Shown: positions 3,001-6,000 of the stretch, piece by piece
Position numbering within the stretch: the stretch's first letter is position 1
Layout: each line of letters starts with the position of its first letter
NCBI RefSeq assembly: GCF_003334255.1
Contig: NZ_QOWU01000066.1
Origin: Escherichia coli
GTDB taxonomy: Bacteria > Pseudomonadota > Gammaproteobacteria > Enterobacterales > Enterobacteriaceae
DNA length: 23,307 nucleotides
Direction: 5' to 3' (one strand)
Position numbers: made by a program

Positions 3001-6000
3001 TCTGGGTAACCTCGCCCTGCAATACGCGAAGAATGTCTTTAACGCCAAAGTGATCGCCATTGATGTCAATGATGAGCAGTTAAAACTGGCAACCGAAATG
3101 GGCGCAGATTTAGCGATTAACTCACACACCGAAGACGCCGCCAAAATTGTGCAGGAGAAAACTGGTGGCGCTCACGCTGCGGTGGTAACAGCGGTAGCTA
3201 AAGCTGCGTTTAACTCGGCAGTTGATGCTGTCCGTGCAGGCGGTCGTGTTGTGGCTGTCGGTCTACCGCCGGAGTCTATGAGCCTGGATATCCCACGTCT
3301 TGTGCTGGATGGTATTGAAGTGGTCGGTTCGCTGGTCGGCACGCGCCAGGATTTAACTGAAGCCTTCCAGTTTGCCGCCGAAGGTAAAGTGGTGCCGAAA
3401 GTCGCCCTGCGTCCGTTAGCGGACATCAACACCATCTTTACTGAGATGGAAGAAGGCAAAATCCGTGGCCGCATGGTGATTGATTTCCGTCACTAAGAGG
3501 CCTTTGCTGCGACTGCCATGTTCGGGTCGCAGCATCGCACACTCTCCAACATGAAATGGCTAAATGGATTATTGTTGCGTAGGAAGGAACAATAATGATA
3601 GTGTTCCCAGTGAAGGAACGCTACTGAGAGTAAAGACACTAATGAAAATGGCCAATCATCCCCGCCCGGGGGACATTATTCAGGAATCACTGGACGAACT
3701 TAATGTCAGCCTGCGCGAGTTTGCCAGAGCAATGGAAATTGCTCCCTCAACGGCAAGCCGATTGCTGACAGGAAAAGCAGCTTTGACGCCAGAAATGGCG
3801 ATTAAACTTTCCGTGGTGATCGGCAGTTCGCCGCAAATGTGGCTGAATCTGCAAAACGCCTGGAGTCTGGCAGAGGCAGAAAAAACAGTGGATGTGTCGC
3901 GATTACGCCGTCTGGTTACGCAATAAAAAAATGGCACTTTATAAAGCGCCATTTAGAACTGATGACAAACGCAACATTGCCTGATGCGCTACGCTTATCA
4001 GGCCTACACGTTCACTGCAATCTATTGGATTTGAAGGGTTTTCATGCCGGATAAGGCGTTCACGCCGCATCCGGCATGAACAAAGCCTACGTTGTCTACA
4101 ATATGAAAATGGCGCCTTTTACAGCGCCATTTTCAGCTTAAAGTTCAAAAGAGATTATATCCCTTCTTCACTCTCTTTTTTCGCTTCTGCCTTCTCGATT
4201 TCACGATACCAGCGCGGATGGTGTTTCTTCGCCCAGCGACGACTTACCTTCCCTTCGATCATCCCTTTAATCGATCCTTTCACCCAAAATGCCATATACA
4301 TATGGATCAGGATGGCGTGGATCAGGATGATACCCGCAGCCGCGTGGATCAGCAGGCTGTAGCGAACAACCTGCATCGGGAAGTACTGCGCAAAGTACGG
4401 ACGCCAGATAATCACCCCGGTCACCAGCAGCACGAAAATCATGCTCATGATCGACCAGAACATCATCTTTTGCCCGGCGTTGTACTTACCGACATCCGCC
4501 ACTTTATGCTCATTGCCTTTCAATACTTCGACAATGTTCAACAGCCACGGAATATCTTTCTTATCCGGGATGTTGTGATGCACAAAACGCACAAACATAA
4601 ACATCAGTGCGACGAAAATCGCAATGCCGAAGAACGGGTGCAAAATGCGTCCCATCTGCGGCGTACCGAAGGTTTGCGTCAGCCATTGCAGCGTCGGGAA
4701 GAAGAACGAAATCCCGGACAGCGCCACCAGGAAGAAGCAAATCACCACGGTCCAGTGACAGGCGCGATCAATAAATTTGGTGCGCACAATCATTTTCGAC
4801 TTACTCATGATGATCCTCCTCGTCATCGTCCACTTCCTTATTCGGGCCAATACCGATGTAGTGGAAAATCAACCCGGCAAAAGTGGCAATAAAGCCAGCC
4901 GCTGCCAGCGGTTTCAACGCGCCTTTCCACAGGCTTACCGAGGTGTCGATCTTCGGATCTTTCGGCAGACCGTGATACAGCTCCGGCTGATCGGCGTGAT
5001 GCAGCACGTACATAACGTGCGTACCACCGACCCCTTCCGGGTTGTAGACGCCAGCATGTTCGTAACCACGCGCTTTCAGTTTCGCCACGCGCTGTTCCGC
5101 CAGCTCCAGCATCTCCTTCTTGGTGCCGAAGTGGATAGCCCCGGTCGGACAGGTTTTCACACAAGCCGGTTCCTGGCCGACGCTGACGCGATCGACGCAG
5201 AGCGTGCATTTATATACCCGGTTATCCTCTTTGTTGAGGCGCGGAATATTAAACGGACACCCGGCAATGCAGTAACCACAGCCGATGCAGTTTTCCGACT
5301 GGAAATCGACAATCCCGTTAGCGTACTGAATGATTGCACCAGCAGACGGGCACGCCTTCAGGCAGCCGGGATCTTCACAGTGCATACAGCCGTCTTTACG
5401 GATCAGCCACTCCAGCTTGCCGTTCTGTTCGGTTTCGCTAAAGCGCATCACCGTCCAGGACTTGGCGCTCAGATCGGCGGGGTTATCGTAAACCCCGACG
5501 CAGTGCCCCACTTCATCACGGATGTCGTTCCACTCCGAACACGCCACCTGACAGGCTTTACAGCCGATACAGGTGGAAACGTCGATAAGTTTTGCGACTT
5601 CTGCTTTGTAATCACGCACCTGAGAAGGCGGCGTGATGGAGTTAGTTGCGGACCTTTTGATAATGTCCTGCGTTTCCATAGCCATCTGTTCGCCCCCTTA
5701 CGCCTTCTCGATGTTGACTAAGAACGCTTTATATTCCGGCGTTTGCGAGTTTGCATCACCGACATTCGGCGTCAGAGTGTTAGCGATATAACCTTTACGC
5801 GCGACACCCTCAAAGCCCCAGTGGATTGGAATACCCACCGTTTCAACCTGCTGACCATTTACATTCAGCGGTTTCAGACGACGCGTTACCACAGCCACCG
5901 CGCGGATAAAGCCACGCTTGCTGGAGACAGTGACACGATCGCCATTATTAATGCCTTTCGCCGCCGCCAGCGTTTCGCTGATTTCCACAAACTGTTCCGG

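Follow-up and report, generated by a model that had tools for sequence, protein, structure and literature searches.

The HigB-HigA toxin-antitoxin pair of Proteus vulgaris plasmid Rts1 is among the closest described relatives of the locus considered here. In Proteus, HigA dimers bind two operators, O1 and O2, that lie over the -35 and -10 elements, and HigA alone represses the hig promoter (Phig) robustly (PMC12266136). In Escherichia coli, the structures deposited as antitoxin HigA (PDB entries 2ICP and 2ICT) have been attributed in a review to YddM of strain CFT073 (PMC3968373), a strain that has the toxin gene. The TA20 pair (ParE-2/HigA-2) of strain NRG857c has coordinates (PMC7232551) that correspond to yddM and an upstream toxin gene between adhP and fdnI, and Bustamante and Vidal reported that K-12 and HS encode the antitoxin alone at this locus (PMC7232551). 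Here, we describe the maeA-adhP-yddM-fdnIHG segment of E. coli in a stretch of 23,307 nucleotides (NCBI RefSeq assembly GCF_003334255.1, contig NZ_QOWU01000066.1; the whole stretch is referred to below as the window). The toxin of CFT073 and NRG857c is absent from the window, and yddM is very probably the surviving antitoxin/autorepressor gene of an ancestral chromosomal higB-higA operon between adhP and fdnI, the toxin gene of which has been deleted. The genes and the gap that frame the argument are as follows.

adhP, ending at position 3496.
adhP-yddM intergenic stretch, 3497-3641, 145 nt, with open reading frames of 24, 25 and 48 amino acids only.
yddM, 3642-3926, plus strand, encoding a HigA-family antitoxin/XRE-type helix-turn-helix repressor of 94 amino acids.
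fdnI, 4155-4808, minus strand, convergent to yddM, located by tblastn.

YddM matches the NCBIfam model TIGR02607 (an equivalog model for the HigA family addiction module antitoxin) with 93.7 bits against a cutoff of 47.7, in an alignment that spans model positions 1-80 of 81. The Pfam domain HTH_3 (Cro/C1-type helix-turn-helix) is found in residues 14-65 (E = 5e-9). The protein is 100% identical over 94 amino acids to PDB entries 2ICP and 2ICT, and its next-best solved relatives are the HigA structures of P. vulgaris Rts1 (E of about 1e-18). These matches, which include those of the profile search that a preliminary description of this DNA had proposed, confirm the relation to the HigA antitoxin family, and the RefSeq name of the product is already HigA family antitoxin. 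PADLOC returned weak generic helix-turn-helix matches only for YddM and none for HigB, and an Rfam scan found nothing near yddM. The start codon had been described as supported by a ribosome-binding site. The position of the start is backed by the TIGR02607 alignment, which starts at residue 3, and by the 94 amino acids of the crystallized protein; the support from a ribosome-binding site is weak, as the purine-rich run nearest to the start is GAGAG at 3626-3630, 11 nt from the ATG. YddM is thus a member of the HigA family by descent, and it is not part of a functioning toxin-antitoxin pair in the window.

Searching with the cognate HigB by tblastn gave no match anywhere in the window. A HigB protein profile (25 orthologues) run in six frames, and a higB DNA profile, both used with filters off and with E values up to 100, likewise gave nothing in or near 3300-4200. 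A functional type II toxin-antitoxin module has genes for both a toxin and an antitoxin, and in the window the antitoxin gene stands alone; the usual place of a HigA-family gene, directly downstream of a HigB/RelE-family toxin gene, is occupied in this way at the orthologous loci and not in the window. The proposal that yddM is an orphan with no partner toxin is therefore upheld by these negative searches. It had further been suggested that the reading frame of yddM, which stays open for 26 codons upstream, could hold a remnant. The frame is indeed open, back to an ATG at 3564. Its reading as a toxin remnant was rejected: the 26 codons have no similarity to HigB and cover a conserved non-coding hig promoter/operator block and the 5' untranslated region. 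In addition, a natural 29-nt deletion allele interrupts this frame in a strain in which YddM is identical.

The missing partner is present at the orthologous loci of other strains. BEN2908, NRG857c and many others have a 279-bp open reading frame between adhP and yddM that overlaps the yddM start by 1 nt. Its 92-residue product matches the Pfam family HigB-like_toxin (PF05015) with E = 4e-17 and aligns end to end over 92 residues with P. vulgaris HigB (4MCT_B; E = 1e-31). His54 and the C-terminal Asp90-Tyr91-His92 are retained in this alignment; an H54A variant serves as an inactive toxin (PMC12266136). DNA of higB, intact or frameshifted, occurs in 1,331 of the 5,426 complete E. coli genomes (24.5%), always as a single copy. 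When the higB matches were sampled at even spacing, 16 of the 40 rows had a 278-bp allele, which carries a frameshift annotation in the RefSeq records of R3, an ST131 isolate and DFS.1, with the adjoining yddM intact. This shared 1-bp deletion inactivates higB in ST131-type E. coli (R3, ST131, DFS.1), and these strains have lost the toxin independently, by frameshift. Strain A3 has an in-frame 9-bp deletion in higB.

The pair was also found outside E. coli in a scan with one genome per species. E. albertii has the full maeA-adhP-higB-yddM-fdnI order and cryptic Escherichia have adhP-higB-yddM-fdnI. The higB-yddM pair adjoins fdnI in about 13 Citrobacter genomes, in Pluralibacter, in an Enterobacter sp. 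and in 'Enterobacteriaceae bacterium 89', with fdnI as the conserved right-hand neighbour across genera. The toxin has decayed in some of these relatives as well: in Citrobacter sp. FP75 (locus L012, 2395-2475) it is truncated and HigB residues 1-27 alone remain, and in C. portucalensis A60 (locus L018, 2234-2498) a frameshifted higB lies beside an intact antitoxin gene. The presence of the higB-higA pair beside fdnI across the outgroups argues that the pair is ancestral and that the toxin has been lost. The comparison of orthologous loci, suggested at the outset as a check, thus places HigB between adhP and yddM in the 1,331 E. coli genomes as well as in E. albertii and cryptic Escherichia.

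The alignments of toxin-carrying and toxin-less alleles divide most of the intergenic stretch of the window into the following parts.

3535-3572, a segment of about 38 nt specific to toxin-less alleles, defined by the alignments.
3574-3590, putative operator O1, a 17-bp palindrome GTTGC-N7-GGAAC that overlaps a candidate -35 element, TTGCGT, at 3575-3580.
3591-3602, plus strand, the 12-nt spacer between O1 and O2, AATAATGATAGT, with a candidate -10 element, GATAGT, at 3597-3602.
3603-3619, putative operator O2, a 17-bp palindrome GTTCC-N7-GGAAC.
3620-3641, plus strand, the 5' untranslated region and deletion junction, defined by the alignments.

In the toxin-carrying alleles, the 279-bp higB sits between the 5' untranslated region that follows O2 and the start codon of yddM. 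The distance from the adhP stop codon to the yddM ATG is 146 nt in the window, compared with 464 nt in BEN2908. The junction, ...GAGAGTAAAGACACT(A/G)ATG, is common to ten of the 11 toxin-less alleles sampled. The exception, O157:H7 strain TR01 (locus L004, 1402-1546), has the usual intergenic length of 146 nt and a different, mosaic sequence, in which 35 nt on the left and 45 nt on the right are replaced base for base by B2-type sequence, with the final 45 nt of higB among it. The ordinary allele is present in other O157:H7 genomes; the TR01 mosaic is probably an assembly or polishing artefact from mixed reads and was set aside. A 147-nt probe running from the toxin-less-specific upstream segment across the junction into the start of yddM was covered to at least 80% in 4,004 of the 5,426 E. 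coli genomes. The other 1,331 genomes that match the probe are the toxin carriers, which align over the yddM start only, and the two classes total 5,335. With a common toxin-less junction in 4,004 genomes, the comparison of alleles indicates that a single deletion removed the whole of the 279-bp higB in the lineage of the window. The locus had been taken for a decayed toxin-antitoxin module; the loss of the toxin is borne out, and the idea of gradual decay gives way to one clean deletion in this lineage.

Directly before the yddM ATG the window reads AGACAC-TAA, which resembles the last higB codon and its stop (CAC TGA), and the other toxin-less alleles read exactly CACTGATG at this point. The CACTA of the window and the CACTG of the other toxin-less alleles favour a retained last codon and stop codon of higB. 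Two models of the junction were weighed, with microhomology either at TAATGAA or at the CAC codons of His7 and His92; the sequence on the 5' side has diverged too far to discriminate between them. The segment at 3535-3572 shows no alignment to the 88 nt that the toxin-carrying alleles have in its place. Searching all of the fetched loci for its source with blastn-short gave chance-level matches of 10-12 nt only, and the segment itself was found in toxin-less loci only.

Alignment of the DNA upstream of higB, or of yddM in the toxin-less alleles, brought out a conserved non-coding block, TGTTGCG-N6-GGAACattaATGatagTGTTCC-N7-GGAAC, which is kept upstream of higB in Escherichia, Citrobacter, Pluralibacter, Enterobacter, Cedecea and Buttiauxella. 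The motif GTTSC-N7-GSAAC has two occurrences only in the 23.3-kb window, where 0.19 would be expected. By analogy with O1 and O2 of Phig in P. vulgaris (PMC12266136), the two palindromes may be operators of the HigA type. The candidate -35 and -10 elements are assigned on the strength of conservation, and the -10 element reads GATAAT in some Citrobacter. Genomic SELEX (systematic evolution of ligands by exponential enrichment) located a site for the RpoD holoenzyme between adhP and yddM, and this site was assigned to yddM (PMC3946193).

Two natural variants affect this region. In about 979 E. coli genomes (the class with 80-90% identity to the probe), O1 is exactly inverted, as in strain M8 (locus L006, 435-475). 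The inversion consists of the flipping of an 11-nt spacer between the 9-nt inverted repeats ATTATTGTT and AACAATAAT (3568-3596 in the window), so that the O1 palindrome reads as the exact reverse complement of GTTGCGTAGGAAGGAAC; the event resembles an inversion mediated by a hairpin, within the putative operator/-35 region. In strain 18KM2445 (locus L050, about 455-460), the DNA corresponding to 3591-3619 is deleted between GGAAC direct repeats, and YddM is identical. This 29-nt deletion takes out the candidate -10 element and O2, and the resulting 118-bp form was seen in two of 40 evenly spaced rows.

The gene itself is retained almost everywhere. A yddM match was found in 5,413 of the 5,426 E. 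coli genomes, with no match in 13; it is full length in 5,409, all with at least 95% identity. The same protein accession, WP_000781370.1, is common to toxin-carrying, toxin-frameshifted and toxin-less strains. Among the 11 toxin-less yddM alleles there are 12 synonymous and three nonsynonymous segregating sites (omega of about 0.08; binomial P = 9e-6 against neutrality, which predicts roughly one synonymous to three nonsynonymous). Synonymous divergence among these alleles reaches 0.06-0.07 with 0-2 amino-acid changes, and comparison with E. albertii gave 13 synonymous and no nonsynonymous differences. The gene thus looks to be under purifying selection in the toxin-less strains, and the 12:3 excess of synonymous sites, taken with the near-universal retention of the full-length gene, argues for continued function.

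Work on K-12 bears on what this function may be. YddM was confirmed among ten DNA-binding candidates by ChIP-exo (chromatin immunoprecipitation with exonuclease digestion; PMC6237786), and yddM was connected with stress regulators in a screen for genetic interactions (PMC9283627). A yddM deletion mutant was scored as hypersusceptible to epetraborole in a Keio screen, an effect that was not complemented (PMC12457515). The preliminary description had proposed that the helix-turn-helix partner survives as a stand-alone regulator. We infer the same from the binding of DNA in K-12 (PMC6237786), from the apparent purifying selection and from the repression exerted by Proteus HigA without its toxin (PMC12266136).

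The history that would account for these observations starts from a higB-higA operon on the chromosome, with adhP on one side and fdnI on the other. One deletion took away the whole of higB and placed yddM directly behind the old hig promoter; the toxin lost in this way belongs to one family with HigB of Proteus plasmid Rts1, a ribosome-dependent mRNA endonuclease. By analogy with Proteus HigA, a YddM dimer may still bind the two 17-bp palindromes that flank the -10 element and repress its own transcription. After the loss of the toxin, yddM appears to have been kept intact by purifying selection, and YddM would now be a small stand-alone XRE-type DNA-binding protein, possibly still able to neutralize the toxin.

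Several points weigh against this account. Simple deletion from the sampled toxin-carrying alleles does not yield the toxin-less allele: its 5' untranslated region and about 38 nt upstream of the promoter differ from all of them, and further events may have gone with the deletion. The deletion removed the native Shine-Dalgarno sequence of yddM (GAGG, in the 3' end of higB), and the ribosome-binding site that remains is weak. A consensus scan of 3400-4200 found no sigma-70 promoter at threshold. The alleles with the 29-nt deletion and with the inverted O1 suggest that regulation from the candidate promoter is not strictly constrained. The selection test covers 11 alleles, uses no tree, includes the suspect TR01 allele (L004) and ignores recombination with toxin-carrying strains, which is evident at the locus (L053).

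An alternative that overlaps with this account is that YddM has been kept as an anti-addiction or immunity factor, neutralizing HigB that arrives on plasmids and other mobile elements. As WP_000781370.1 occurs in toxin-carrying and toxin-less strains alike, the toxin-binding surface is unchanged, and the purifying selection on yddM is compatible with such a role. Homologues of HigB are carried by 538 plasmid records, of which 99 come from Escherichia, and reviews have proposed an anti-addiction role for orphan antitoxins (PMC7354431). However, the genuinely plasmid-borne HigB proteins all share less than 60% identity with the cognate toxin, and a type II antitoxin usually acts only on the toxin of its own pair; the same review states that such a role of orphans 'remains to be demonstrated as a common usage' (PMC7354431). 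Three PLSDB records (NZ_CP141085.1, NZ_CP141089.1 and CP054253.1), the only ones with more than 60% identity, carry a near-identical higB and were discounted: they are 253 kb-4.9 Mb in size, with NZ_CP141089.1 at 4.9 Mb, two of them are unannotated at the match, and they look like chromosomal sequence filed as plasmid. On this balance we consider a role in immunity to be unlikely.

It could also be that yddM is a neutral relic, functionless and simply not yet decayed. In keeping with this, disruptions do occur, if rarely (the Tn3-like insertion in strain E6474 described below and the 13 genomes with no match), deletions and inversions in the promoter region are tolerated, and no clear phenotype is on record, the epetraborole effect in the Keio mutant being uncomplemented (PMC12457515). 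A functionless gene is hard to reconcile with full-length retention in 5,409 of 5,426 genomes, with 12 synonymous against three nonsynonymous sites (P = 9e-6), or with toxin-less alleles that have diverged by 0.06-0.07 at synonymous sites with 0-2 amino-acid changes, and we regard the relic as improbable. The reverse polarity, in which yddM originally stood alone and B2-type E. coli gained higB by insertion in front of it, would suit the presence of higB in 24.5% of E. coli genomes only and the difference in upstream intergenic sequence between the two allele classes, but it is very hard to credit, as the outgroups have the pair beside fdnI with the same 1-nt overlap and promoter/operator block, E. 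albertii and E. coli share a conserved upstream region in their toxin-carrying alleles while the toxin-less segment is found in E. coli only, and independent decay of the toxin elsewhere (the ST131 frameshift, the Citrobacter FP75 truncation and the C. portucalensis frameshift) gives the direction as loss.

Survival of yddM from a higB-higA operon that lost its toxin by deletion therefore remains the preferred explanation. The remaining features of the window near yddM are the following.

3505-3534, plus strand, a hairpin just 3' of the adhP stop codon, presumed to be the stem of the adhP terminator.
3929-3954, terminator-like hairpin, copy 1, AAATGGCxC...GCGCCATTT, found by terminator scan.
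About 3979-4007 and 4046-4077, two palindromes that resemble repetitive extragenic palindromic (REP) sequences and form a bacterial interspersed mosaic element (BIME).
About 4106-4133, terminator-like hairpin, copy 2, recognized by alignment with BIME-less alleles.

The end of adhP, the 145-nt gap with its tiny open reading frames, the BIME and the convergent fdnI are all as first described. The hairpin behind adhP has exact 9-nt inverted-repeat arms, TGCTGCGAC and GTCGCAGCA, and as RNA it folds with a 10-bp stem (-19.7 kcal/mol, z = -2.5). It is conserved in all alleles, toxin-less and toxin-carrying, and it is not followed by a T-run in the allele of the window. AdhP differs between strains by five amino acids only. 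Downstream of yddM, a 178-nt REP/BIME block (3921-4098) is polymorphic for presence and absence, independently of toxin status. The two copies of the terminator-like hairpin bracket this insertion, and BIME-less alleles (M8, R3) carry one hairpin. A query with the REP region gave 156,031 matches, with a median of 28 per E. coli genome.

Rarer events were also seen. In E6474 (locus L051, 1-1687) a Tn3-like transposon, TnAs1, is inserted in yddM with loss of the N-terminus; there are very few such genomes. A copy of IS200C lies between yddM and fdnI in some strains (GPEC60-33-648, locus L054, 1093-1551; E06). The 214-bp contig NZ_JAMQHS010000132.1 (locus L039, coverage of about 1), labelled Clostridium sp. 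CMCC3677, is 100% identical to the upstream region and start of toxin-less yddM; contamination of that assembly with E. coli DNA is almost certain. Farther along the window, Rfam SECIS_3 matched with 84 bits at 8105-8163 on the minus strand, at the junction of the minus-strand open reading frames 5698-8109 and 8158-8745; as expected, this is the site of the selenocysteine TGA of fdnG.

The orphan state of yddM at this exact locus is already known, being published (PMC7232551) and annotated in RefSeq, and current understanding is thus unchanged by its observation in the window. Our analysis adds population counts, the polarity given by the outgroups, the evidence of a single junction, the operator architecture, an estimate of selection and a correction regarding the upstream frame. 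It documents an example of the decay of a chromosomal toxin-antitoxin pair in which the toxin goes first, by deletion or by frameshift, and the repressor half persists, apparently under selection. It also accounts for the presence in K-12 of an XRE-family transcription factor that is a 'y-gene' and for which no pathway is apparent: the YddM of K-12 is to be read as HigA, the likeliest primary target of which is its own promoter, and the B2-type strains supply a natural toxin (HigB, WP_000605675.1) with which YddM may be tested. More tentatively, YddM may have been domesticated in most E. coli, either as a regulator that acts at other sites besides its own promoter or as a permanent immunity factor against plasmid-borne HigB. 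If true, this would be a dated, population-scale natural case in which an antitoxin became a host regulator, with same-species comparators in which the toxin is intact, frameshifted or deleted.

Compared with the described systems, the E. coli pair has the toxin-first gene order of Rts1 HigB-HigA, and YddM aligns with Rts1 HigA over residues 7-87 (E = 1e-18). The plasmid HigB genes annotated as Rts1 are 56.5% identical to the E. coli toxin by tblastn. The Rts1 promoter has two palindromic operators, as does the region upstream of yddM; the operator sequence differs, and binding by YddM is a prediction. Whereas the Rts1 pair is plasmid-borne, that of E. coli lies on the chromosome beside fdnI and is inherited vertically, with the toxin absent from the window. 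YbaQ of K-12 (PDB entry 2EBY), a HigA-like XRE protein of 113 amino acids, is a distant paralogue of YddM (E = 6e-9) from a different locus outside the window; it likewise stands alone in K-12, whereas a ParE/HigB-type toxin has been retained next to it in pathogenic B2 strains (PMC7232551), and it too has been verified as a DNA binder by ChIP-exo (PMC6237786). Orphan antitoxins regarded as degraded type II toxin-antitoxin systems, such as those of the Klebsiella pneumoniae survey (PMC7192599), as summarized in PMC7354431, follow the same pattern, in which the toxin is lost or inactivated first and the antitoxin/repressor persists. For yddM, the history can be traced in detail and comprises an ancestral pair, one shared deletion and, separately, the frameshift in ST131.

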